A DNA stretch of 64,000 nucleotides from an uncultured Chloroflexia bacterium. Lineage in GTDB: Bacteria > Chloroflexota > Limnocylindria > Limnocylindrales > CSP1-4. This document shows positions 15,903 to 32,196 of the stretch, in pieces (position 1 is the stretch's first letter; each line of letters begins with the position of its first letter). The DNA is taken from contig CAWHRD010000008.1 of NCBI GenBank assembly GCA_963831745.1, positions 73,816-137,815 on the forward strand, in the 5' to 3' direction. The translations under genes and the position numbers were made by a program. The notes below the pieces were generated by a model. The model searched no databases and had not been told where the DNA came from. It was given only the letters and a program-made list of their open reading frames with translations.

Positions 15903-16695
15903 TCATGCCGCCGGGTGTTGCGCGTCGATCGCGAGCACGGCCTCGGCCGCGAGGTGGAGGAGAAGAGCGCGTCCCTCGGCGTGATGGGGCCATCCGCGTG
16001 GATCCCAGGCCGCGCCTGAGAGGTCGTCCCCCGCGTAGAGCATCTGGCCGAAGGAGACGCCCCGGAACCGCGCGACGGCGAAGAACGCGGCCGCCTCCAT
16101 CTCGACGGTTAGGCAGCCCTCCGCCACCCTGCGGCTCGATCTTCGCCCGCGTCTCACGGTAGAACCCGTCGGTCGTCCAGGTCTTGCCCGTCACGTGAGG
16201 GATGGCATGCCGCTCGAGGGTGGCCAGGATGGCGGCGACGGCGTCGTCCGTCGGTGCCACCTCCCGCGACGGCGGCGCGTAGTGGTAGCTCGTCCCCTCG
16301 TCGCGAACGGCCGCCGTCGGCACGACGATGTGACCGAGAGCGAGCTCCGGAACGAGCACGCCGGCGCCGCCGACCGCCACGAATGCTCGGCAGCCGAGGG
16401 CGATCAGCTCGTCCAGCCACCCGGCCGCCAGCGGCGCGCCGACGCCGGCCTGGGCGATCGCCAGGCGTCGCCCGCCGTAGTCGACCTCGTAGATCGGATG
16501 CGGGCCCATCTCGGACGCGAGCGCCCCGATCTCGCGACCGCCGAGCTCGGCGACGGCAGACGCGATCACGTCCCGAAAGAAGCAGAGAACGGCGTGCCGC
16601 GGCATGTCGAACGGCGCGTGGGCGAGCGCCGGCTCGATCACGGCCAATGGCGTCGGATCGAACTCGAGGATCGGAGCGTCGGGGAGGTCGGACAA
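15903..16695 (-). pseudogene. nucleoside phosphorylase (PNP_UDP_1 family) with a +1 frame break near 16129-16135
   Basis: The N-terminal two-thirds are in the frame of track ORF 15823..16965 (..GVGAPLAAGWLDELIALGCRAF..TWTTDGFYRETRAKIE). The C-terminus is in the frame of ORF 15903..16157 (RRVAEGCLTVEMEAAAFFAVA..). Start is TTG 16695 after AGGAAG, or GTG 16713. Confidence 0.7.
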
Positions 16696-17162: not shown

Positions 17163-17197
17163 GCCGGGCGGCCCATGGCGAGAGCCGCGTGGCCGCG

Positions 17198-17302
17198 GCG
17201 CGATGCCGCCACGCTGCGGCGCGATGCCGCCACGCTGGGGCGCGATGCCGCCACGGCGCGGCGCGATGCCGCCACGGCGCGGCGCGATGCCGCCACGCTG
17301 CG
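17198..17302. repeat. 21-bp tandem repeat x5
   Basis: GCGCGATGCCGCCACGCTGCG units at 17198, 17219, 17240, 17261 and 17282, with 2-3 variable bases at the unit end. Confidence 0.9.
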
Positions 17303-17334
17303 GCACCACATCCTGGGACTTGACCACCCCAACC

Positions 17335-17350
17335 TTCACGCGAACGTGAA
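17335..17350 (+). promoter_or_regulatory. perfect dyad TTCACG-CGAA-CGTGAA at the 5' end of the MerR gene
   Basis: Inverted repeat read directly from the sequence. TTGACC lies at 17320-17325 just upstream. Function is not established. Confidence 0.3.
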
Positions 17351-18063
17351 TGTTGTGGGATCATCCGCACATGTCGTCCCCAGCTTCCCCGCGCGTCGCG
17401 CCCGCGGTCCGCCCCGCTTCGGCGGATCCGGCGGCGGCCGATCGCGCGGCGGTAGATCCGGCGGCGGCCGATCCGGCGGCGGCCGATCGCGCGGCGGTAG
17501 ATCCGGCGGCGGCCGATCCGGCTGCCGATCCGGCGGCGGCCGGTCGCGCGTCGCCGACCAGGTCCGAGCCCGCCCCGGCTCCCGTTCCGCCACGGCTGCT
17601 TCGCATCCAGGAGGTCGCGTCGGAGACCGGCCTGACGCCCCGCTCGATCCGCTACTACGAGGAGATCGGGCTCCTCCGCCCGGCCGCCCGCTCGCAGGGG
17701 TCCTATCGCCTGTACGACGCGTCGGACCTGGAGCGGCTGCGGTTCATCCGCGAGCTGCGCGACAACGCCGGCTTCAGCCTCGGCGAGATCTCGCGCCTGC
17801 TCGAGGACGAGGAGGCGCGCATCCGCGACCGCGAGCGCTTCCGGGCTGCCGGCGACGAGGCCGAGAAGCGCGCGATCCTGCGCGACCTCATCTCCCGGAT
17901 GGACCGCCAGGTCGCGACGCTCACCGAGAAGGCCGATCGCCTGCGCGAGATGATCGAGGCGGCCGAGTCGCGCCGCGAGCACCTGCGGGCCCACCTCGCC
18001 GAGCTCGAGGGCGGGTCGCCCGCCCACGCGGCCGGCGCGCCGCACGCGGAGACCGGGCCGTGA
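17350..18063 (+). CDS. MerR family transcriptional regulator with repetitive Ala/Asp/Pro N-terminus
   Basis: HTH region LLRIQEVASETGLTPRSIRYYEEIGLLRP..YRLYDASDLERLRFIRELR, then a C-terminal coiled-coil region. Start could be ATG 17350 or ATG 17371. Confidence 0.8.
   Translation: MLWDHPHMSSPASPRVAPAVRPASADPAAADRAAVDPAAADPAAADRAAVDPAAADPAADPAAAGRASPTRSEPAPAPVPPRLLRIQEVASETGLTPRSIRYYEEIGLLRPAARSQGSYRLYDASDLERLRFIRELRDNAGFSLGEISRLLEDEEARIRDRERFRAAGDEAEKRAILRDLISRMDRQVATLTEKADRLREMIEAAESRREHLRAHLAELEGGSPAHAAGAPHAETGP
17425..17541. repeat. 15-bp GATC-phased tandem repeat (~8 units) inside the MerR 5' coding region
   Basis: Alternating GATCCGGCGGCGGCC and GATCGCGCGGCGGTA units, encoding ADPAAADRAAVDPAA... 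Confidence 0.85.
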
Positions 18064-19349
18064 CGATCCGTCCGCTCGGCAGCGCCGGCGCCCTCCGCTC
18101 GATGCGCCATCGCAACTTCCGCCTCTTCTTCGGCGGACAGGCGATCTCGCTCGTCGGCTCCTGGATGCAGGCGGTGGCGCAGTCGTGGCTGATCCTCACG
18201 CTCACGAACGACCCGCTGATGCTGGGCGTGGTCGCGGCGGCCCAGTGGACTCCCGTCCTGCTGCTGGGGCTCTTCGGCGGCCTCATCGCCGACGCCCTCC
18301 CCAAGCGCCCGACCCTCGTGATCCTCGAGGGCGTGATGGCGACGCTGGCGATCGTGCTGGGCCTCCTGACCCTGGCCGGCGTCGTCCAGGTCTGGATGAT
18401 CCTCGTCCTCGCCGTCCTGCTCGGCTGCGTGAACGCCATCGAGATGCCGGTCCGCCAGTCGTTCGCCGTCGAGATGGTGGGCCGCGAGGACGTGGTTAAC
18501 GCGGTGGCCCTCAACTCGGCGACGTTCAACGCCGCCCGGGTGGTCGGCCCGGCCGTCGCCGGGATCACGATCGCGGTCTTCGACATCTCGATCGCCTTCT
18601 TCATCAACGGCCTCAGCTTCCTTGCCGTCATCGCCGCCCTGCTCGCGATGCGCGCCGAGGAGCTCCGCACGCCCCCGCCGATCCCGCGTCCGCGCACCGT
18701 GCGTGCCGTCGTCGCGTCGGTCGGGGAGGGGCTCGGCTACACGCGACGGACGCCGTCCGTCCTGCTGCCCGTCGTGGTCGTCGGCCTCGCGGCGACGATC
18801 GGCATGAACTTCCAGGTGACGATCCCGCCGTTCGCGCGCGACGTTCTGGGGGGCGACTCGACGACCTTCGGGTTCCTCATGACGGCCAGCGGCCTCGGGT
18901 CCGTGGCCGCCGCGCTCCTGCTTGCGACGCGGCGGCACCCGAGCCCGTGGGCGATTGCGGGAGGCGCGACGATGCTGGGCGCCGGCCTGCTCGCCATGGC
19001 GGCGTTCCCGGTGTTCGCGGTCGCCCTCGCGGCGCTCGCGTTCGCCGGGTTCGGCGCGATCTGGATGGCCGCGAACGGCAACACGCTCATCCAGGCGACG
19101 GTCCCGGATGAGCTGCGCGGCCGTGTGCTCAGCGTCTACACCACGGTCTTCGCCGGATCGACGCCGATCGGGGCGCTCTTTGCGGGGGTGATCGCCTCGC
19201 GCTGGGGCGCCGTCGCCGCGCTCGCGGTGGGTGGCGTCCTCACCGTGGCGATCGGTGGCGCGGCCATTGCCTGGCTGCGACGACACCGCGACGTGGGCCT
19301 GCCGGCGCCGGCTCGCGCGGCGCTCGGCGGCCGCCGGACGGCGCCGTAG
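18060..19349 (+). CDS. MFS transporter (EntS / MFS_3-like)
   Basis: GTG 18060 forms a GTGA overlap with the MerR stop. FRLFFGGQAISLVGSWMQAVAQSWL is typical of this MFS subfamily. About 12 helices. Confidence 0.8.
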   Translation: MTIRPLGSAGALRSMRHRNFRLFFGGQAISLVGSWMQAVAQSWLILTLTNDPLMLGVVAAAQWTPVLLLGLFGGLIADALPKRPTLVILEGVMATLAIVLGLLTLAGVVQVWMILVLAVLLGCVNAIEMPVRQSFAVEMVGREDVVNAVALNSATFNAARVVGPAVAGITIAVFDISIAFFINGLSFLAVIAALLAMRAEELRTPPPIPRPRTVRAVVASVGEGLGYTRRTPSVLLPVVVVGLAATIGMNFQVTIPPFARDVLGGDSTTFGFLMTASGLGSVAAALLLATRRHPSPWAIAGGATMLGAGLLAMAAFPVFAVALAALAFAGFGAIWMAANGNTLIQATVPDELRGRVLSVYTTVFAGSTPIGALFAGVIASRWGAVAALAVGGVLTVAIGGAAIAWLRRHRDVGLPAPARAALGGRRTAP

Positions 19350-19397
19350 GGGGATCGGCCCCATAGGGGGATCGGCGCCGTAGGGGGATCGGCCCCG
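19347..19397. repeat. 17-bp tandem repeat x3 that begins with the MFS stop codon
   Basis: TAGGGGGATCGGCCCCA / TAGGGGGATCGGCGCCG / TAGGGGGATCGGCCCCG. Confidence 0.85.
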
Positions 19398-19526: not shown

Positions 19527-20526
19527 TTGAGCATGTCGACGAGTCCCGCGACCCTCCGCCGCGACGAGGCAGGGTCCGGCGAGACCCGCCTGATGCTCCG
19601 CGCCGCCCAGCTCTACTACCGCCTGAACCTGACCCAGGACGAGGTCGGCAAGCGGCTCGGGGTGAGCCGCTTCAAGGTCGGCCGGCTCCTGGACCGGGCG
19701 CTGCGCGAGGATGCCGTCCGGATCGAGATCGTCCACCCGGCCGCCCGGCTGGTGGCCCTCGAGGACGCCCTCGTCGAGCGCTTCGGGCTCGCCGGCGCGG
19801 TCGTGGTCGACGTGCCGGCCACGGGCTCGCCGGCCGACGACGAGCTCCTCGCGCGCGAGCGGGTCGCCGCCGCGGCCGCCCTCCACCTGGCCACGATCCG
19901 GCCGCAGGGCGCGATCGGCGTCTCCTGGGGGCGCACGATGCTGCAGCTCGCGGCCCACCTGCAGCCCGGCTGGACGTCCGCGACGGAGATCGTGCAGCTC
20001 AACGGGGCGATCTCGCGGTCGGCGCTCCCGACGCGGGCCCAGGAGGTCGTCGAGCGGTTCGGGACCACGACCGGGGCCGCCATCCGGCTGATGGCGGCGC
20101 CCGCGATCGTCGGCTCGCCCGACCTGCGCCGGGCCCTGGAGGACGACGCGGCGGTCGGGGAGACGCTCGCCGCGGCGCGCACCGCACGGACGGCCATCTT
20201 CGGGATGGGCGTCCATGGGCCGGACAGCGTCCACGTCGCGTCGGGCTACCTCGACGAGGCCGAGCTCGGCGGCGCTGTCCGAGGCCGGCGCCGTCGGCGA
20301 CGTCCTGGGTCGGTTCCTGGCCCAGGACGGCCGCATCGCGCTTCCCTCGCTCGACGCCCGGACCGTGGGGCTGCCGCTGGATGACCTGCGGGCGAAGCCG
20401 CTGACCGTCGGGCTCGCCGCGGGCGCGGGACGCGGCCCGATCGCGCTGGCGGCCCTGCGCGCCGGCATCGTCACCGTCCTCGTCGCCGACGAGGCGACCG
20501 CCGCGTGGGTGCTGGCCCATGGCTGA
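19527..20526 (+). pseudogene. SorC/DeoR-type sugar-phosphate-binding transcriptional regulator, +1 frame break near 20268
   Basis: N-terminal HTH RLMLRAAQLYYRLNLTQDEVGKRLGVSRFKVGRLL plus sugar-binding domain in frame 0. The C-terminus ALSEAGAVGDVLGRFLAQDGRI..VLVADEATAAWVL continues in frame +1 (track ORF 20215..20526). Start is TTG 19527 or ATG 19533. Confidence 0.75.
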
Positions 20527-21161
20527 CCCGCGCACGCCATCGGCCGACGAGGTCCGGGCGCTGGTCCGGAGGATCGTCGACGCCACGCTCGACGGCGGCA
20601 CTCCGGGACCGTCCGCACCCCCGACGCCGGCCGCGCCCGCCCCTGCGCCCGCGCCCGCCCCTGCTCCCGCACGTGCCGCGGGATCCATCGCCATCGCGAT
20701 CGGCGCCGACCACGGCGGCTGGCAGCTCAAGGACGTCATCGGCCGGGTCCTGGCCGAGGCCGGCTACGCGGTCACCGACTGCGGCACCAACGGGCCCGAC
20801 GCGGTGGACTACCCCGACATCGCGCACGCGGTGGCGCGCCTGGTCGCCGACGGGAGCCTGCCGCTACGGCATCGTCCTCGACGGCGCCGGGATCGGCTCG
20901 TGCATGGTCGCCAACAAGGTGCCGGGCATCCGCGCTGCCAACTGCCATGATCTCTCGTCGGCCCGCAACAGCCGCGAGCACAACCACGCCAACGTCCTGG
21001 CGCTCGGCGCCCGCTTCCTCGGCGAGGGGCTGGCGATCGAGATCGTGCGGGCCTGGCTCGGGACCGACTGGGCGCCCGGCCGCCACGCCGCCCGCGTGGC
21101 CAAGATCACGGACGTCGAACGCCGCTACACGAACCCAACCGGTGAGGGTCGACCACGATGA
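20519..21161 (+). pseudogene. rpiB: ribose-5-phosphate isomerase B with ~57-aa N-terminal targeting-peptide-like extension; +1 frame break near 20857
   Basis: [35 protein letters not shown] is in one frame. [42 protein letters not shown] continues in the +1 frame (track ORF 20505..21161). The N-terminus is [17 protein letters not shown] followed by a Pro/Ala linker. Confidence 0.75.
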
Positions 21162-21307
21162 GCGAAGCGATCAACCAGCGGAACGACCTCGTCGAGGCGA
21201 TCACCCACGAGGTCCTCGCCGCGCTGGGCCACGGCGGCCAGGCCGGCGGCGCGCCCCGGATCCCTGCGCCGCCTGCGTCCGCGGCTGCGCCGCCCAGTGC
21301 GCGGTGA
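21158..21307 (+). CDS. 49-aa ORF: amphipathic helix plus Pro/Ala linker (targeting-peptide-like, no enzyme domain)
   Basis: ATG 21158 forms an ATGA overlap with the RpiB stop. TGA 21305-21307 forms a GTGA overlap with GTG 21304 of DeoC. Sequence: [49 protein letters not shown]. Too short to appear in the ORF track. Confidence 0.45.
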
Positions 21308-22047
21308 AGGTCCGCGACATCGTGGCCGGCGGCGCCTCGCGCGTGGAGTACCACGGCCCGGGCGCGGAGGTGCCGCGCGACCTCGCCCGCTACATCGACC
21401 ACACGCTGCTGCGGCCCGACGCCGCGGCCGCCGACATCGACCGCCTGTGCGACGAGGCCGCCGAGCACGGCTTCGCCGCCGTCTGCGTGAACCCCGCCTG
21501 GGTCCGCCGCGCCGCCGATCGACTCCGCGGGACCGGTGTCGCCGTCGCCTCGGTCGTCGGGTTCCCGTTCGGCGCCACCCCGCCCGACGTCAAGGCCTTC
21601 GAGGCCCGCCGGGTCATCCGCGACGGGGCCCGCGAGGTCGACATGGTGATCAACATCGGGGCCCTCAAGAGCGGGATGCACGACCTCGTCCGCGAGGACA
21701 TCGCCCGCGTCTCGGACGCCTGCCACGAGGGCGGCGCGGCGAACAAGGTGATCATCGAGGCCGCCCTCCTGACCGACGCGGAGAAGGTCGTCGTCTGTCG
21801 TCTTGCCCAGCAGGCCAAGGCCGACATGGTCAAGACCTCGACCGGCTACGCGAAGGGCGGCGCGACGGTCTTCGACGTGGCGCTGATGCGGGAGACGGTC
21901 GGACCGAAGATGGGCGTCAAGGCGGCCGGCGGGATCCGGACGGCGGACGACGTGCAGGACATGATCGCGGCCGGCGCGACCCGCATCGGGGCCTCGGCCG
22001 GGGTCAGCATCGTCAGCGGGGAGAAGGGTGCGCATGGGCAGTACTGA
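21304..22047 (+). CDS. deoC: deoxyribose-phosphate aldolase, paralog 1
   Basis: [80 protein letters not shown] 21304 is taken as the start. It could instead be fused to the upstream 49-aa ORF if an indel is present. Confidence 0.85.
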
Positions 22048-22738
22048 GCACATCGCCGAAGTCCCCGCCGACCTCGCCCCCTACATCGACCACACGCTCC
22101 TCGACCCGGCCGCGACCCGGGCCGACATCGACGCCCTGTGCGCCGAGGCGAAGCGCTACGGCTTCGCGGCCGTCTGCGTGAACCCCGCCTGGGTGCGCCG
22201 CGCCTACGAGAACCTCGCCGGGACCAGGGTCGCGGTCGCCTCGGTCATCGGCTTCCCGCTCGGGGCCGCCACGACCGAGGTGAAGGTCCTCGAGACGCGC
22301 CGGGCTCTCCGCGACGGAGCCCGCGAGATCGACATGGTCATCAACGTCGGGCGGCTCAAGAGCGGGATGAACGAGTGGGTCGGCGACGAGATCCGCAAGA
22401 TCGCCGAGGTCTGCCACGAGGCCGGAGCGATCACGAAGGTCATCATCGAGACGTCGCTCCTGACCGACGCCGAGAAGGTGACCGCCTGTCGCCTCGCGAA
22501 GGAGGCCAGGGCCGACATGGTCAAGACGTCGACCGGCTGGGGGACCGGCGGCGCCACCGTCGCCGACGTGGCGCTGATGCGCGCGACGGTCGGCCCGGAG
22601 ATGGGCGTCAAGGCGTCCGGCGGCATCCGCACCGCCCAGGACGTGCAGGACATGATCGCCGCCGGCGCGACCCGCATCGGGGCCTCGGCCGGCGTCAAGA
22701 TCGTCACGGGAGAGAAGGGCGCAGATGGGCAATATTGA
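22034..22738 (+). CDS. deoC: deoxyribose-phosphate aldolase, paralog 2
   Basis: Same motifs as paralog 1 ([38 protein letters not shown]). ATG 22034 lies 5 nt after GAAGGG (the track starts it at GTG 22028). Overlaps paralog 1 by 14 nt. Confidence 0.85.
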
Positions 22739-23354
22739 CCTCCGGGCATACGTCTTCCTGGACAGCCTCCAGGCCCAGTACGCGGCGTTCCTCGGCACGG
22801 TTGCCCAGGGCTTCCTGCCCCTCGCCGGCGACGCCTCGCTGTCGATCGAGATCTCGCCCGGCATCGAGATCAACCGCCTCACCGACATCGCCCTCAAGTC
22901 CACGGCGGTCAAGCCCGGGATGCAGATCATCGAGCGCTACTACGGCATGCTCGAGATCCACTCGCCGTCGCAGGCCGAGGTGCGCGCCGCCGGCGCTGCG
23001 ATCCTCGGCGAGATCGGCCTGGCGGAGACCGACCGGATCAAGCCGCGGGTCCTGTCCTCCCAGATCATCCGCCGCATCGACGACCACCAGGCGCAGCTCA
23101 TCAACCGCACGCGCCACGGCCAGATGCTGATCCCGGGTCAGACGCTCTACGTCCTGGAGCTGGAGCCGGCGGCCTACGCTGCCCTGGCCGCCAACGAGGC
23201 GGAGAAGGCGGCCCACATCAACATCCTCGAGGTCCGGTCCTTCGGATCGATGGGCCGCATCTACCTGGGCGGCGAGGAGCGCGACATCGACGTCGGCTGG
23301 CGCGCGGCGCTCGCGGCGATCGAGGGCCTCGAGGGACGGGACGCCAAGGCGTAG
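22725..23354 (+). CDS. BMC shell protein, tandem-domain (BMC-T)
   Basis: [25 protein letters not shown] start, then two BMC-like halves (..[23 protein letters not shown] and ..[34 protein letters not shown]). It resembles the double-domain shell proteins of actinobacterial/myxobacterial BMC loci as I remember them. Confidence 0.8.
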
Positions 23355-23478: not shown

Positions 23479-23787
23479 ATGGCAGAAGCGCTCGGGATGA
23501 TCGAGGCCCGCGGGTTCGCGGCGGTGGTCGAGGCCGCCGACGCGATGGTGAAGGCGGCGAAGGTCGAGCTCGTGAGCTACGAGAAGACCGGCGGCGGGTA
23601 CGTGACCGCGGTGGTCCGCGGCGACGTCGCCGCGGTCAAGGCCGCGGTCGAGGCCGGCGTGCGCAACGCCGGCAAGGTCGGCGAGGTCGTCGCCAGCCAC
23701 GTCATCGCCCGGCCGCACGTCAACGTCGACCTCGTGCTGCCGCTCGGCCGCCTCGACGAGGCGAAGGCCGAGTCCGGCCAGGGCTAG
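23479..23787 (+). CDS. BMC shell protein, hexamer type (BMC-H, PduA/EutM-like)
   Basis: Canonical [57 protein letters not shown]. Strong RBS GAGAAGGAGA. Confidence 0.95.
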
Positions 23788-23851: not shown

Positions 23852-24139
23852 ATGCTGCTTGGACGAGTGACCGGGACCGTGGTCGCGAGCCGCAAAGAGC
23901 CGCTCATGGAGGGCTGGAAGCTCCTCGTGGTGCGCCAGCTCGACGCGGAGAACCACGTGGCCGGCGGATACGTCGTGGCCGCGGACGCGGTCGGCGCGGG
24001 CGTCGGGGAGGTCGTGCTGTACGCGACCGGCAGCTCGGCGCGGAACACCGAGGCGACGAAGGACCGTCCCTGCGACGCGGTGATCGTGGCGATCGTCGAC
24101 ACGTGGGAGATCGGCGGGACGGAGGTCTACCGCAAGTAG
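23852..24139 (+). CDS. BMC vertex protein (BMC-P, EutN/CcmL family), paralog 1
   Basis: [56 protein letters not shown]. Confidence 0.9.
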
Positions 24140-24174: not shown

Positions 24175-25629
24175 ATGGACGAGCGCGAGATCCAGGAGAT
24201 CATCGAGCGGGTGCGGCGCCGCGTGTCGGCAGCGGGCGACCCCCGCCCGGGCGCCACGCTGCGCGCCGAGGCGGAGCTGTCGGCGGCCGCCGCGAGCGAG
24301 CTGGGCGACGGCATCCACGCCACGATCGACGAGGCGGTGGCCGCGGCGACGCGCGCCTTCGTCGCGTTCCAGGCGCAGGGCCTGGCCGGCCGGAAGGTCA
24401 TCATCGACGCGGTGCGCCGCTCGATGCTCGACCACGCCGAGCAGCTGGCCCGGATGGCCCACCAGGAGACCCATCTCGGGCGCGTCGATGACAAGGTCGT
24501 CAAGAACCGCCTCGTCGCCTCCCGGGCGCCGGGGCCGGAGGACCTCGAGGTCCAGGCGGTCACCGGCGACGCCGGGATGATGGTCACCGAGTTCGCCCCG
24601 TTCGGCATCGTCGCGGCGATCACCCCGGTGACGAACCCGACGTCGACGATCATCAACAACACGATCAGCATCGTGTCGGCGGGGAACGCGGTCGTCTTCA
24701 ACGCCCACCCCAGCGCGCGGCGCTGCTCGGCCGAGACGGTCCGCCTCATCAACCGGGCGATCGTCGGGGCCGGTGGGCCGCCCGACCTCGTGACGGCCGT
24801 CGCGACGCCGACGATCGACACCGCGCGGGCCCTCATGGGCCATCCCGGCGTCCGGGTGCTGCTCGTGACCGGCGGGCCGGCCGTCGTGCGCGAGGCGCTC
24901 AAGTCGGACAAGCGGGCGATCACCGCCGGCCCCGGCAACCCGCCGGCGGTCGTCGACCAGACCGCCGACGTGGAACGCGCCGCCCGCGACATCGTGCGCG
25001 GAGCGTCCTTCGACAACAACATCGTGTGCATCGACGAGAAGGTCGTCCTGGTCGTCGACTCGGTCGCCGACCGCCTGGTCCGGGCGATGACCCAGAACGG
25101 CGCCTACCTGCTCAAGGAGCACGAGCTGCGCCGCCTCGAGCGCGTCATCTTCAAGGAGCTGGGTCAGCCGGGCAAGCCGGGCGTCATGAACCCGGCCTGG
25201 ATCGGCAAGGACGCCGTGAAGATCCTGGCCGAGATCGGCGTGCAGGCGGAGCCGGCTCCGCGCCTGCTGATCGCCGACGTCCCGCGCGACCACAGCTTGG
25301 CCTGGACCGAGCAGATGATGCCGGTCCTCCCGGTCGTGCGCGTCGGCACGGTGGACCAGGCGATCGACCTCGCGGTGCGCATGGAGCACGGCTTCCGCCA
25401 CACCGCCTCGATCCACTCCACGAACGTCGAGACGATCACGAAGATGGCCCGGGCGATGAACTGCAGCATCTTCGTCACGAACGGCCCCAACGTTGCGGGC
25501 CTGGGCGAGGGCGGCGAGGGCTTCACCTCGTTCTCCATCGCCAGCCCGTCCGGGGACGGCCTCACGCGGCCGCGGACGTTCTCGCGCGAGCGGCGCATCA
25601 CCGTCGTCGGCGCGCTGCGGATCGTCTGA
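24175..25629 (+). CDS. CoA-acylating aldehyde dehydrogenase (PduP/EutE-like) with N-terminal targeting helix
   Basis: ATG 24175 after GGCGGAGGA. N-terminus MDEREIQEIIERVRRRV then a linker. Aldehyde dehydrogenase core with FDNNIVCIDEKVVLV (catalytic Cys context typical of PduP/EutE). Confidence 0.9.
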   Translation: MDEREIQEIIERVRRRVSAAGDPRPGATLRAEAELSAAAASELGDGIHATIDEAVAAATRAFVAFQAQGLAGRKVIIDAVRRSMLDHAEQLARMAHQETHLGRVDDKVVKNRLVASRAPGPEDLEVQAVTGDAGMMVTEFAPFGIVAAITPVTNPTSTIINNTISIVSAGNAVVFNAHPSARRCSAETVRLINRAIVGAGGPPDLVTAVATPTIDTARALMGHPGVRVLLVTGGPAVVREALKSDKRAITAGPGNPPAVVDQTADVERAARDIVRGASFDNNIVCIDEKVVLVVDSVADRLVRAMTQNGAYLLKEHELRRLERVIFKELGQPGKPGVMNPAWIGKDAVKILAEIGVQAEPAPRLLIADVPRDHSLAWTEQMMPVLPVVRVGTVDQAIDLAVRMEHGFRHTASIHSTNVETITKMARAMNCSIFVTNGPNVAGLGEGGEGFTSFSIASPSGDGLTRPRTFSRERRITVVGALRIV

Positions 25630-25631
25630 CG

Positions 25632-26300
25632 ATGACCCCTCGGCCGGTGTCGGACGCTCGCCCGCCGATCGAGCCGGCCCTCGCGCTCCTCGAGCTCGAC
25701 TCGATCGCGGCCGGCATCGAGGCGGGCGACGCGATGGCGAAGCGCGCCCCGATCGACGTCCTCCGGGCCGGCACGGTCCACCCCGGCAAGTACCTGGTCC
25801 TCGTCGGCGGTGCCGTGGCGGACGTGGAGGAGGCCCTGGAGGCGGGCCGCGACGTGGCGGCGTCCTCGGTCCTCGACGTCGTCTTCCTGCCCAACGTCCA
25901 CCCGGCCGTCGTGGCGGCCATGCGCGGCATCCGCCGCGAGGCCGCCGGCGAGGCCCTCGGCATCATCGAGACCGCCACCGTCGCCGCGATCATCGAGGCG
26001 GCCGACGCAGGGCTCAAGGGTGCCCGGGTGGTCCTTCTGGAGCTGCGTCTCGCCGACGACCTCGGCGGCAAGGGCTACCTGCTCTTCGACGGGCCGGTCG
26101 CCGAGGTGGAGGCCGCGGTCGAGCTCGGGAGCGCGCGGATCGCCGGGTCGCCCGGTCTGGTCCGGCGGGTCATCCCGCAGCTCCACGCGGAGATGGCGGA
26201 GAACCTGGCCGCCGACGCGCGGTTCGCGGCGCGCATGCGCGAAGCCAGCGGGCCGGCGGGGTCGATCCCGCGGCCGCACCCCGCGAAGCCGGCGAGGTAG
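25632..26300 (+). CDS. BMC shell protein, tandem-domain (BMC-T), second type
   Basis: Two BMC domains: ALALLELDSIAAGIEAGDAMAKRAPIDVL..GKYLVLVGG and ALGIIETATVAAIIEAADAGLKGARVVLLELRL..GKGYLLFDG. Confidence 0.85.
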   Translation: MTPRPVSDARPPIEPALALLELDSIAAGIEAGDAMAKRAPIDVLRAGTVHPGKYLVLVGGAVADVEEALEAGRDVAASSVLDVVFLPNVHPAVVAAMRGIRREAAGEALGIIETATVAAIIEAADAGLKGARVVLLELRLADDLGGKGYLLFDGPVAEVEAAVELGSARIAGSPGLVRRVIPQLHAEMAENLAADARFAARMREASGPAGSIPRPHPAKPAR

Positions 26301-26303
26301 GCG

Positions 26304-26693
26304 ATGCAGCTCGCACGTGTCACCGGCACCGTCGTCGCCACGGTCAAGGTCCCGGGCCTGACCGGGATCAAGCTCCTCCTGGTCCAGCCGCTGGACCGCC
26401 AGCTGCTCCCCGTTGGCGGTCAGGTCGTCGCGGCCGATGCCGTCCACATGGCCGGACCGGGCGAGCTGGTGTACATCGTCGCCGCGCGCGAGGCGGCCCA
26501 GGCGATGCCCGATCCGTTCGTCCCGATTGACCATGCGATCGTCGGGATCGTGGACGCGGTTCGGTCACTGGCGGGTGACGATCCCGCTGCGTCCACCCCG
26601 GCCGAGCCGGTCGCCCCGGCCGTGCCTGACGCCCCCGGCGCCCCCGCCGCGCCTCCCGCCTCGAGGAGCCGCTCCCGGAAGGCGACGCCGTGA
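26304..26693 (+). CDS. BMC vertex protein (BMC-P), paralog 2, with Pro/Ala-rich basic C-terminal tail
   Basis: [55 protein letters not shown], then a ~40-aa tail ..PAEPVAPAVPDAPGAPAAPPASRSRSRKATP. Confidence 0.85.
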   Translation: MQLARVTGTVVATVKVPGLTGIKLLLVQPLDRQLLPVGGQVVAADAVHMAGPGELVYIVAAREAAQAMPDPFVPIDHAIVGIVDAVRSLAGDDPAASTPAEPVAPAVPDAPGAPAAPPASRSRSRKATP

Positions 26694-26971
26694 AGCTCGC
26701 CCGGGTCGTCGGGACCGTCGTCTCGACGATCGACCACCCCGCCTTCGACGGCCGGACCCTGCTGCTCTGCGACCTCCTCGACGCGGCCGGGCGCCCGGCC
26801 GGCGGCTACATGATCGCCGTCGATTCCGTCGGCGCGGGCGCCGGCGAGACAGTCCTCCTCCTCGACGAAGGCAACTCCGCGCGCCAGGTCCTCGCGGCGC
26901 CGGGCGCGCCGATCCGGACCGTCGTCGTCGGCATCGTCGACGAGGTGACCGCGGATGCCGATCACGCCTGA
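26690..26971 (+). CDS. BMC vertex protein (BMC-P), paralog 3
   Basis: GTG 26690 forms a GTGA overlap with the previous gene's stop. MKLARVVGTVVSTID..LLLCDLLD..MIAVDSVGAGAGETVLLLDEGNSAR..VVVGIVD. Confidence 0.9.
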   Translation: MKLARVVGTVVSTIDHPAFDGRTLLLCDLLDAAGRPAGGYMIAVDSVGAGAGETVLLLDEGNSARQVLAAPGAPIRTVVVGIVDEVTADADHA

Positions 26972-27416
26972 CGACGCCCGGGCCGTCCTCGCCCGCTGGC
27001 AGCCGGTGCTCCGGCTCGCCGACTGGGACATCGATCTCCGGCTCGTCACCACGGCGTGGCGCAAGCGCGGGGACGTCAAGGTGGACCTCGACGACCGCAA
27101 GGCCGTCCTGCTGCTGTGGGCCGGACAGCCCACGGAACACCTCGAGGAGGTGGTCGTCCACGAGCTGGTCCACCTGCGCCTCTACGCCATGGACCAGATG
27201 CTCGTCGAGCTGCTGGACGCGGTCTTCGGCACCGACGCCGCGGAGCCGCGGCGGGCCTTCGCCGAGACGCAGTTCATGACCCTGCTGGAATCGACCACCG
27301 AGGATCTGGCGAAGGCGCTGCTCGCGGCGAGTGGCAGCACCGCGCCCCTCACGTTCGAGCGCCTCCGCGACGAGGTCGAGCGCGAGATCGCGCCCGGGCC
27401 GACGACGGGCGAGTAG
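26955..27416 (+). CDS. hypothetical protein with HExxH motif, last gene of the BMC operon
   Basis: ATG 26955 overlaps the third BMC-P gene by 17 nt. VVVHELVHLRLY contains HELVH. 153 aa. No family recognised. Confidence 0.6.
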   Translation: MPITPDDARAVLARWQPVLRLADWDIDLRLVTTAWRKRGDVKVDLDDRKAVLLLWAGQPTEHLEEVVVHELVHLRLYAMDQMLVELLDAVFGTDAAEPRRAFAETQFMTLLESTTEDLAKALLAASGSTAPLTFERLRDEVEREIAPGPTTGE

Positions 27417-29410: not shown

Positions 29411-30742
29411 CTACCCGGCGAGACGCTCCAGGACCACCGGCGCGGGCGCCGGCGGGGCGTCGGCGATCGTGACCGCGGCCCGGACCTCGGCGGCAGCCGT
29501 CTCGGCCTGGGCGACCGACCGGGCATGGACCATGCAGATCGGTCGGGCCGGCCCGACCTCCGCCCCGATCGGCGCGAACCGCGTGAAGCCGACGGCGTGG
29601 TCGATCGTCTGGTCCGCACGGACGCGTCCGCCGCCCATCCCGACGATCGCCAGGCCGATCGCCCGAGCGTCCTCGGCGGCGATGAAACCGGCGCGTGCCG
29701 GAGGCACGGCGAGCGTCACCCCGGGAAGTGGCAGGTAGGTGTCGGGGCGCTCGAGCAGGTCCGCCGGCCCGCCGAGCGCGGCGACCATGCGCGCGAACCG
29801 CTCTGCGGCTTCGCCCGACGCGAGCGCGCGCTCGCAGGCGGCCCGGGCATCGGCGACGGTCCCGAAGATCCCGCCGATGACGAGCAGCTCGGCCGAGAGA
29901 GCCATCGTCACCTCGTGCTGGCGCGGCTCGCGGCCGCCGTGCCCGCCCTCGCCGACCAGGTAGGCGATCGCCTCGCGGACCTCGACGGCGTTCCCGGCCG
30001 TGGTGCCCAGCACCTCGTTCATGTCGGTCAGGATCGCCGTCGTGCGGCAGCCGGCCCCGTTCGCGACCGCCACGATGCTCTCGGCCAACTCCCGGGCGCC
30101 GTCCACGGTCGTCATGAAGGCGCCGGTGCCGAACGTCACGTCCTGCACGAGGCCAGCCAGGCCGGCGGCGAGCTTCTTCGACAGGATCGATGACGTGATC
30201 AGGGGGATGCTCTCGACCGTCGAGGTCACGTCACGGATGGCGTAGAGCCGCCGGTCCGCAGGGGCGAGCTCGCCTGTCTGGCCGATGATCGCGCAGCCGA
30301 CCTCCCGCACGACCCGACGGAAGTGGGCGTTGTTGGGCGCCGTCGTGTAGCCGTCGATCGCGTCCATCTTGTCCAGCGTGCCGCCGGAGTGGCCCAGGCC
30401 TCGCCCGGAGATCATCGGGATGGTGGCTCCGCAGGCCGCCACGATGGGGGCCAGCATGAGCGAGACCTTGTCCCCGACGCCGCCGGTGGAGTGCTTGTCG
30501 AGCGGCGGACCCGGGAGGTCCGCGTCGGACCAGTCGAGGACCGTGCCGGAATCGCGCATTGCGCGGGTGAAGGCAACGAGCTCGGCGCGGGTCATCCCCC
30601 GGAAGAAGACCGCCATCGCGAATGCGGCGGCCTGGCCCTCGGTGATCGTCCCGTCGGTCAGCCCGCCGACGAAGAAGGCGACCTCCTCGTCCGTTAGCGA
30701 GCGACCGTCGCGCTTGTGGCGGATGACCTCCTGCGGCAGCAC
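29411..30742 (-). CDS. deoA: thymidine / pyrimidine-nucleoside phosphorylase
   Basis: GTG start. [59 protein letters not shown]. Confidence 0.9.
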
Positions 30743-30745
30743 GGC

Positions 30746-31621
30746 TCAGGCCTCCCCATCGCCGGCGCGGCCGGCCGACCCGTCGCCATCGCCGGCGAAC
30801 GACCCCACGAAGGCCCGCACGAGCCGCGTCAGGTCGGCCGCGGCCAGGGCAGCGCCCCGCAGCGTCTGCTCGTGGTCGATCGGCTCGTCGCTCATCCCGA
30901 CGGCGAGGTTCGTGATCGCGCTGATCGCGGCGACGCGGATCCCCGCGTGGCGCGCCACGATCACCTCGGGCACGGTGGACATCCCGACCGCGTCGGCGCC
31001 CAGCACCCGGTATGCCCGGATCTCGGCCGGCGTCTCGAAGAGCGGTCCGAGGAGCGCGCAGTAGACGCCCTCGTGGAGCCGGATCCCGAGCGCGCCGGCG
31101 GTGCGCAGCAGCCGGGCCCGGAGGGCCGGGTCATAGGCATCCTCGAGGCCGACGAAGCGCTCGCCCCACTCGTCGTCGTTCGCGCCGACGAGGGGATTGG
31201 TCCACATCGCGTTGATGTGGTCGGTGATGAGCATGAGGCTGCCGGGCTTCGCCTCGGCGCGGAGCGAGCCCGCGGCGTTGGTGAGGAGGAGGGCCTCGAC
31301 GCCGAGCGCCGCGAAGGTCCGGATCGGGAGCTTGATGACGGCCGGGGGGTGGCCCTCGTAGAGGTGGAAGCGGCCCTGCATGCAGGCGACGGGGACACCC
31401 TCGAGGGTGCCGAGGACGAATCGACCGGCGTGGCCGGCCACGGTCGACGGCGGGAAGCCGGGGATCTCCGCGTAGGGGACGGCGACGGCGTCGTCGAGCG
31501 TCTCGGCGAGGCCGCCGAGACCGGAGCCCAGCACGATCCCCAGCCGAGGCACGAAGCCCGGGGCCCGCTCGCGCAGGACGTCGGCGGCCAGGCGCGCGGG
31601 ATCGACGGACGGGTGCGTCAT
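30746..31621 (-). CDS. punA: purine nucleoside phosphorylase (trimeric PNP / inosine-guanosine family)
   Basis: LGIVLGSGLG..IPGFPPSTVAGHAGRFVLG..MQGRFHLYEG..LLLTNAAGSL..GPLFETPAE..GADAVGMSTVPEV. Its ATG forms an ATGA overlap with the cdd stop. Confidence 0.9.
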   Translation of the reverse strand: MTHPSVDPARLAADVLRERAPGFVPRLGIVLGSGLGGLAETLDDAVAVPYAEIPGFPPSTVAGHAGRFVLGTLEGVPVACMQGRFHLYEGHPPAVIKLPIRTFAALGVEALLLTNAAGSLRAEAKPGSLMLITDHINAMWTNPLVGANDDEWGERFVGLEDAYDPALRARLLRTAGALGIRLHEGVYCALLGPLFETPAEIRAYRVLGADAVGMSTVPEVIVARHAGIRVAAISAITNLAVGMSDEPIDHEQTLRGAALAAADLTRLVRAFVGSFAGDGDGSAGRAGDGEA

Positions 31622-32031
31622 CGAACGGCCTCCCTGCCGAGGTACTCGGGCCCGAAGCTGTAGGGGAGCAGCTCGCCCAGCGTAACGCTGCGGATCACGC
31701 CCGCCAGGCCGGCCAGGTGCACCGGCGTGTCGAGGGTCGCGAACTCGCGCAGCCGCTGGCGGCAGGCGCCGCACGGCGAGGGAATCCCCGGCCGCTCGTC
31801 GGCGACGACGAGGATCTCGGTGATCTTGCGGCTCCCCGCCGCCACCAGGACGCCGATGGCCGATGCTTCGGCGCACTGGCTCTGCGGGTAGGCCACGTTC
31901 TCCACGTTGGCTGCGACGTGGACGCGCCCATGCTCGTCGCGCAGCGCGGCACCGACGAGGTACTCGGAATAGGGGGCGTAGGCGCGCTCGCGGACCGCGA
32001 AGGCGGCGGCGTAGAGGTCGTCGGCGGACAT
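31618..32031 (-). CDS. cdd: cytidine deaminase
   Basis: YAPYSEYLVGAAL..CAEASAI..PCGACRQRLREF zinc-ligand motifs. ATG at 32031. Confidence 0.9.
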   Translation of the reverse strand: MSADDLYAAAFAVRERAYAPYSEYLVGAALRDEHGRVHVAANVENVAYPQSQCAEASAIGVLVAAGSRKITEILVVADERPGIPSPCGACRQRLREFATLDTPVHLAGLAGVIRSVTLGELLPYSFGPEYLGREAVR

Positions 32032-32196
32032 CGGCAGGTGGCTCCAGGTTCGCTCGCGGCGCATCGGCCCGACGAGGGCCCTCACTGTAGCGCGCCGCCA
32101 CCCGCGCGCGAAGCTCCACGCTGGCTCGCAGGCCATTACGCCCGGAAGGGTGGACGATCGTTTGACGGAAGTGGCCAAGGCGAGGCATACTTCGCA

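Follow-up and report, generated by a model that had tools for sequence, protein, structure and literature searches.

Conserved N-terminal helices, predicted to be encapsulation peptides, on cargo enzymes of a probable SPU3-type microcompartment operon

An RpiB-like protein and a CoA-acylating aldehyde dehydrogenase (AldDH), encoded together with shell proteins of a bacterial microcompartment (BMC), each begin with an extension that precedes the conserved enzyme fold, which raises the question of whether these extensions are encapsulation peptides (EPs) and, if so, what chemistry the compartment would house. A preliminary description of the stretch of DNA analysed here (64,000 nucleotides in full, hereafter the window) proposed that they are EPs and that an encapsulated RpiB would place pentose-phosphate interconversion inside the shell. 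On the basis of gene content and sequence comparison, we found that the region between 19.5 and 27.0 kb of the window (Table 1) is probably an SPU (sugar-phosphate-utilising) BMC operon of the SPU3 kind whose cargo is targeted by EPs. Its shell gene set consists of one BMC-H, two BMC-T and three BMC-P genes. In the BMC-Ts protein, a histidine aligns with PduT residue 38 and the pore cysteine is absent; the interval from 19.5 to 27.4 kb yielded no gene for PduS, PTAC or TPI.

Table 1. Positions of the SPU-type operon, its predicted targeting elements and nearby nucleoside-catabolism genes in the window
Feature	Position	Strand	Basis
SorC/DeoR-type sugar-binding transcriptional regulator	19527..20526	+	Pfam PF04198 3e-27
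RpiB-like protein (SPU 'RPI', PF02502)	20519..21161	+	213 aa reconstructed
RpiB N-terminal helix, residues 8-25, predicted encapsulation peptide	20540..20593	+	AF2/DSSP and conservation
RpiB Pro/Ala-rich linker, residues 26-57	20594..20689	+	Low pLDDT, gap-rich columns
DERA1, deoxyribose-5-phosphate aldolase (PF01791), SPU signature enzyme	21158..22047	+	Pfam
DERA2, second aldolase paralogue, without N-terminal extension	22028..22738	+	Pfam PF01791
BMC-Tdp shell protein, CcmP-like	22725..23354	+	phmmer against PDB, CcmP 2.7e-86
BMC-H shell hexamer protein	23479..23787	+	PF00936 1e-29
BMC-P pentamer protein, triplet member 1	23852..24139	+	PF03319 1.8e-29
CoA-acylating aldehyde dehydrogenase (PF00171), 484 aa	24175..25629	+	Pfam; 5JFL 1.4e-126
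AldDH N-terminal helix, residues 2-20 (DEREIQEIIERVRRRVSAA), predicted encapsulation peptide	24178..24234	+	AF2 and conservation
AldDH linker, residues 21-45, low confidence, semi-conserved	24235..24309	+	AF2 pLDDT, alignment
BMC-Ts shell protein, PduT-like	25632..26300	+	PF00936 two domains 1.5e-33; PduT 9.6e-37
BMC-P pentamer protein, triplet member 2	26304..26693	+	PF03319 1.1e-24
BMC-P pentamer protein, triplet member 3	26690..26971	+	PF03319 4.5e-25
Pyrimidine-nucleoside phosphorylase	29411-30742	-	Pfam PF00591/PF02885/PF07831
Purine nucleoside phosphorylase	30746-~31600	-	Pfam PF01048
Cytidine deaminase	31618-~32040	-	Pfam PF00383

The RpiB-like reading frame opens with the ATG at 20519, and 57 residues precede the RpiB fold. 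Because the Pfam domain PF02502 (LacAB_rpiB) starts at residue 59, nucleotides 20519-20689 correspond to residues 1-57, which bears out the extension of about 57 residues reported earlier. For structure prediction we used AlphaFold2 (AF2) with 25 close homologues (mean pLDDT 61 and 56) and drew only on the local secondary structure of the N termini. A helix was assigned to RpiB residues 9-25 by AF2/DSSP, at low confidence (pLDDT about 50; shallow 25-sequence alignment), and residues 22-54 had pLDDT below 50 and were without secondary structure. Across 76 orthologues the helix was as conserved as the enzyme core, with the highest values at R13 (100%), V16 (98%), V12 (85%), E11 (78%), V20 (76%) and L15 (72%). 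A strict regular expression for the helix matched 68 of these orthologues, and the 8 misses represent variants of the motif, since the R13 column is conserved in all 76. By contrast with the helix, the linker (residues 26-57) was gap-rich and varied among orthologues in both sequence and length. TRF detected an 18-nt tandem repeat at 20631-20670 that encodes part of the linker's Ala-Pro run, and such a repeat fits drift of linker length by slippage. We also found that 41% of the codon differences in the RpiB helix and 44% of those in the AldDH helix were synonymous; as this share resembles that of the first RpiB core strand (39%), we conclude that both helices are translated and under purifying selection. 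A signal peptide or membrane anchor was considered and ruled out: the helix windows average a negative hydrophobicity, and the sequence lacks a hydrophobic stretch.

These observations bear on whether the RpiB extension could be an annotation artefact: translation might really begin near residue 55, and the supposed 'helix' would then be an untranslated stretch that overlaps the regulator gene's end. The ATG at 20519 does overlap the regulator stop by 8 nt, and a strong Shine-Dalgarno sequence is absent. However, the N-terminal peptide is conserved in frame in orthologues down to 55% identity, R13 never varies, and synonymous changes are frequent among the codon differences in the helix. The orthologue alignment contains no conserved alternative start codon near residue 55, and public gene calls for over 100 RpiB homologues take in the extension. 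We therefore find an artefact hardly credible. Comparison with solved structures also confirmed that the extension is a departure from the ordinary enzyme, as had been proposed: all 22 distinct solved RpiB-family (RpiB/LacAB) sequences aligned from query residues 45-59 onward, over the core only, and none of the 22 matched the helix or most of the linker.

AldDH was described as starting with a helix and a linker ahead of the dehydrogenase core, and this arrangement was confirmed. Its ATG at 24175 opens MDEREIQEIIERVRRRV and follows a GGAGG located 5 nt upstream. The BMC aldehyde dehydrogenase 5JFL, its best solved homologue, matched the protein only from residue 36-46, continuing to residue 483, and there was no C-terminal extension. 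AF2 predicted a helix at residues 3-20 (pLDDT 80 for residues 1-10 and 60 for residues 11-20), and pLDDT fell below 50 across residues 19-42. Within the helix, I6, I9, I10, R12, V13 and R16 were 92-97% conserved among 68 orthologues.

A third such helix in the operon, absent from the preliminary description, is found on DERA1, whose start codon shares an ATGA overlap with the stop codon of RpiB. The N-terminal extension of this aldolase consists of a helix at residues ~8-23 (nt 21179-21226), a linker and a C-x2-C-x3-C-x3-C motif. The helix reads R-x-x-L-V-E-A-I-T-R-E-V-L-A-A-L, and its conservation among orthologues reached 87% at R8, 89% at L11 and 97% at both T16 and V19.

In classical EPs, about 17 residues at the N terminus form an amphipathic helix, and the linker behind it is poorly conserved; the peptides of EutC, EutE and PduD follow the pattern (D/E)-I-x-x-I-(I/V)-x-x-V. 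Work on the classical peptides of PduP, PduD, EutC and EutE is reportedly that of Fan et al. 2010, Fan and Bobik 2011, Kinney 2012 and Aussignargues 2015. The AldDH segment MDEREIQEIIERV resembles the EutC/EutE/PduD pattern, although the Pdu and Eut peptides belong to another BMC type with other cargo enzymes, and the peptides in the window are predictions from sequence. The claim that the RpiB and AldDH helices are amphipathic was sustained by the predicted helices at residues 9-25 and 3-20, to which the hydrophobic moment adds evidence that is modest alone. Eisenberg moments were 0.50 for RpiB and 0.68 for AldDH, compared with residue-shuffle means of 0.30 and 0.35 (P = 0.09 and 0.04, respectively), and the DERA helix gave P = 0.72. 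The well-established PduP and EutE peptides scored no better than shuffles in the same test. Because the moment is weakly discriminating, we did not rely on it; the EP architecture is supported instead by the conserved helices, the variable linkers and the BMC context.

To place the operon among its relatives, we scanned one genome per species for close relatives of the RpiB-like protein and obtained 80 loci. Their hosts were mostly represented by Chloroflexota metagenome-assembled genomes, with up to 82% identity, and further hosts were Acidimicrobiia, other Actinomycetota and a few other phyla, at 55-63% identity. A DERA gene lay directly downstream of the RpiB homologue in all 80 loci. Shell genes were present in every locus whose downstream flank reached 2.5 kb or more (68/68), which confirms the BMC context proposed for the extensions, and AldDH was present in all 63 loci whose flank reached 4.5 kb or more. 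Where the flank sufficed, gene order was constant: RpiB, DERA, BMC-Tdp, BMC-H, BMC-P, AldDH, BMC-Ts, BMC-P and BMC-P.

We propose a mechanism in which three putative cargo proteins (the RpiB-like protein, DERA1 and AldDH) would use their conserved N-terminal helices, each about 17 residues long and attached through a variable linker, as EPs, both for coalescence of the cargo and for docking to the inner face of the shell. The shell would be assembled from BMC-H, the CcmP-like BMC-Tdp, the PduT-like BMC-Ts and the three BMC-P proteins. AldDH would convert acetaldehyde to acetyl-CoA, and the nucleoside-catabolism genes on the minus strand (29411..32040) may supply deoxyribose phosphate to the SPU pathway. 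The helices themselves are defined by their sequences, conservation, predicted helicity and exclusive BMC context; from gene content and the literature, we infer their targeting function, the packaging role of RpiB and the pathway.

A different role for the helices would be oligomerisation or enzyme regulation, with the BMC association being incidental to shared ancestry. The hydrophobic moment is not decisive alone, and two published observations, the RPI-DERA complex and EP-dependent insolubility (PMC11585597), would also fit pure enzyme-enzyme association. Against such a role, three unrelated enzyme families in one operon share the same helix and variable-linker design, this design always occurs beside shell genes, and the solved non-BMC RpiB-family sequences align to the core only. 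We consider a purely non-targeting role very improbable, and it largely merges with the targeting explanation, because coalescence of cargo by EPs is part of the accepted mechanism.

We next asked what the RpiB-like protein would contribute to such a compartment. In an alignment, the position of the E. coli RpiB catalytic Cys66 was occupied by Asp121 of the window protein, in the motif DGAGIGS. Relative to E. coli RpiB (1NN4), ICGTG is replaced by LDGAG and RQHND by REHNH, and His99 is retained. Aspartate was found at the Cys66 position in all 73 orthologues with a readable site. In RpiB of the M. tuberculosis type, a compensating Glu75 is the alternative to Cys66; at this place the window protein seems to have a serine. 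By sequence, the protein lacks Cys66, and apparently also the compensating Glu75, one of which is expected of a competent ribose-5-phosphate isomerase B. All SPU RpiB-like proteins have been reported to carry the Cys66-to-Asp substitution (PMC11585597). The same study found that a purified SPU6 RPI homologue had negligible ribose-5-phosphate isomerase activity, observed an RPI-DERA complex of roughly 1:1 and EP-dependent insolubility, and proposed that RPI is retained as a packaging component (PMC11585597). Because of the substitution and these activity and complex data, the earlier suggestion of pentose-phosphate interconversion inside the shell is doubtful, and we did not find support for it. 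It is more likely that the RpiB-like protein binds DERA as a partner in packaging than that it isomerises ribose-5-phosphate, and the core chemistry of the compartment, as predicted from its enzymes, is that of deoxyribose-5-phosphate aldolase and AldDH.

A more elaborate possibility involves DERA2, which shares 72% identity with the core of DERA1. Each of the 80 related loci encodes just one DERA, and the extension-less extra paralogue was seen only in this window. Rather than an isomerase, the RpiB-like protein might be a dedicated EP-bearing adaptor, analogous to CcmM/CcmN, that binds DERA and nucleates cargo; it could then carry DERA2 by piggy-back, and the Cys motif of DERA1 could add a metal- or redox-dependent layer of assembly. 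We regard this composite proposal as speculative and unlikely. The adaptor idea for RPI has already been raised (PMC11585597), and the piggy-back transport of DERA2 and the role of the DERA1 Cys motif would, if true, be new.

The assembled operon is interrupted by frameshifts. In RpiB, positions 1-54 and 57-138 of the Pfam profile fall in two frames, and a nucleotide alignment traced the break, at ~20855, to one extra G relative to the closest relatives; orthologues read ADGTCRWGI across the junction. Because the extra G breaks the frame, an intact protein requires the two frames to be joined, and the joined sequence of 213 aa gave gap-free alignments with over 100 full-length homologues. The regulator gene contains a 1-nt insertion near 20268 (an extra G, with the frame change relative to L001/L002 at 20267/20269), and DERA1 contains a -1 frameshift in its linker, at 21240-21258 (frame 2 and then frame 1 relative to L001/L002). 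A fourth frameshift, near 16050, affects an unrelated phosphorylase gene. The RpiB frameshift is probably an assembly error, as indicated by the scattered indels, the GC content of 73% and the derivation of the relatives from metagenome-assembled genomes.

If the frameshifts were instead real, the locus would be decaying. The EP-bearing RpiB would be a truncated pseudogene, in frame for 113 residues and out of frame from there to its end at 20950, the helices would be relics, and the EP-less DERA2 would do the aldolase work in the cytosol. Such decay would account for three frameshifts within 1 kb (20268, 20855 and 21240-58) beside shell genes and an AldDH gene that are intact relative to L001/L002, and for an intact, extension-less second DERA that is unique to this window. 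However, the fourth frameshift, in an unrelated gene, suggests general assembly error in sequence of such high GC content, and the closest relatives are themselves metagenome-assembled genomes. Moreover, both halves of each interrupted gene are 72-91% identical to their orthologues, with no stops or other damage. We consider decay unlikely; were the frameshifts real, the EP-bearing RpiB and DERA1 would both be pseudogenes in this organism.

We compared the operon with published SPU metabolosomes. The SPU type received its name in 2014, when RpiB was already given as one of the locus components (Axen 2014, PMC4207490), and it was expanded in 2021 to more than 280 loci in seven subtypes (Sutter 2021, PMC8217296). 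SPU3 was described as encoding AldDH, pfam01791 and pfam02502 proteins, with N-terminal EPs on AldDH and the pfam01791 protein, and a shell with one BMC-H, a BMC-P triplet, a CcmP-like BMC-Tdp and a BMC-Ts without PduS or a pore cysteine; its hosts include Chloroflexi and Actinobacteria (PMC8217296 Suppl. Data 2). The window locus matches SPU3 gene for gene and was assigned to it by this published description. Both encode AldDH, DERA and an RPI whose gene precedes that of DERA. In both, AldDH and DERA carry N-terminal EPs, the shell set is the same, including the CcmP-like BMC-Tdp and a BMC-Ts without PduS or the pore cysteine, and an aspartate replaces the catalytic cysteine of RpiB. The window differs in having the second, extension-less DERA paralogue, a SorC-type regulator upstream and the three frameshifts. 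The unfused RPI of the window also carries a strongly conserved EP, whereas in the 2021 description EPs are given for AldDH and DERA and not for pfam02502 (PMC8217296). In later work, SPU-associated RPI was reported to begin with a typical EP that leads into an unstructured linker, the EP of AldDH to be N-terminal in all SPU subtypes but SPU6, and all SPU DERAs to have an N-terminal extension (PMC11585597).

A close, experimentally characterized counterpart is the SPU6 pair of RPI and DERA from Chloroflexi bacterium GWB2_54_36 (PMC11585597). In this RPI too, the fold is preceded by a helix at the N terminus and then an unstructured linker, and Cys66 is replaced by Asp with His99 retained. Its gene adjoins that of the DERA, which has an N-terminal extension, and a regulator gene lies upstream. 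The RPI linker is ~75 residues in SPU6 and ~32 in the window, however, the regulator is GntR-like rather than SorC-type, and the SPU6 AldDH belongs to another branch and has a C-terminal EP, unlike the N-terminal EP of the window AldDH. An assignment to SPU6, which we considered in view of the Chloroflexi relatives and the absence of PduS, was ruled out by the N-terminal EP of AldDH and by the CcmP-like BMC-Tdp; in SPU6 the AldDH EP is C-terminal and the BMC-Tdp falls in another clade (PMC8217296 Suppl. Data 2).

An encapsulated RpiB is therefore not the unusual feature that it was taken to be, as RpiB has been published in this BMC type since 2014 (PMC4207490, PMC8217296, PMC11585597). Because these papers of 2014, 2021 and 2024 already describe the SPU compartment and its targeting peptides, our finding is a correct rediscovery, and its significance extends little beyond correct annotation. 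A modest addition is that the helix of the unfused, SPU3-type RPI is as conserved as the enzyme core in 76 loci from several phyla, which fits the published idea that RPI is kept for packaging. For the organism, the right label for the locus is an SPU3-type microcompartment for the catabolism of deoxyribose-5-phosphate (DNA detritus) in a high-GC, Chloroflexota-like genome, and its RpiB-like gene should not be counted toward pentose-phosphate-pathway capacity.

The microcompartment operon carries two genes for deoxyribose-5-phosphate aldolase (DERA1 and DERA2), a pair found in none of the 80 related loci, each of which has an RpiB-like homologue with DERA downstream. We found that DERA2 shares 72% identity with the core of DERA1 and retains the catalytic Lys and Asp motifs. 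The N-terminal extension of DERA1 contains a cysteine motif that we noted in the window and compared across loci L001–L024 and others. It is kept across the Chloroflexota clade, with Ser replacing the fourth Cys in some loci; in the Acidimicrobiia clade, one Cys of the motif is left. This motif could serve to bind a metal or form a disulphide, and the papers on sugar-phosphate-utilising (SPU) microcompartments that we consulted make no mention of it. In the RpiB linker, which joins the N-terminal helix to the RpiB fold, the 18-nt tandem repeat fits with slippage as the source of the differences in linker length among orthologues.

Four single-base frameshifts were present, three of them clustered inside a 1-kb stretch. 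Against the related loci L001 and L002, the aldehyde dehydrogenase and shell genes were intact. These frameshifts may reflect either real decay or assembly errors.

Features in the microcompartment operon and its surroundings (window coordinates)
Feature	Position	Remarks
Single-base frameshift	~16050	In PNP_UDP_1 phosphorylase gene
GC-rich tandem repeat	17192-17304	Upstream of MerR-family ORF
MerR-family regulator ORF	17350-18063	
GC-rich tandem repeat	17420-17542	Within N-terminal region of MerR-family ORF
17-nt repeat, unit CGGCCCCGTAGGGGGAT	19339-19397	3.5 copies
Single-base frameshift	20268	In SorC regulator gene
18-nt tandem repeat	20631-20670	2.2 copies, 95% matches; encodes Ala-Pro run of RpiB linker
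Single-base frameshift	20855	In RpiB-like gene
Single-base frameshift	21240-21258	In DERA1
C-x2-C-x3-C-x3-C motif	21265-21300	DERA1 extension, between helix and aldolase core
DERA2 (second DERA paralogue)	22028-22738	Without N-terminal extension
153-aa ORF with HELVH motif	26955-27416	Overlaps end of third BMC-P gene
Pyrimidine-nucleoside phosphorylase, purine nucleoside phosphorylase and cytidine deaminase genes	29411-32040	Minus strand

Upstream of the operon, the 17-nt repeat lies in the intergenic stretch that separates the SorC regulator from the MFS transporter gene. Every unit contains a CCCC-GTA-GGGG palindrome, and the repeat could therefore represent an operator or REP-like element. 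Of the two GC-rich repeats near the MerR-family ORF, one has a 21-nt unit (5.4 copies) and the other a 15/45-nt unit (about 8 copies).

At the end of the operon, the HELVH ORF had no Pfam match; it is 78–83% conserved at the same position only in L001, L002, L004 and L008. The nucleoside phosphorylase and cytidine deaminase cluster lies 2.4 kb downstream of the operon. The presence of these genes is consistent with a supply of deoxyribose phosphate.
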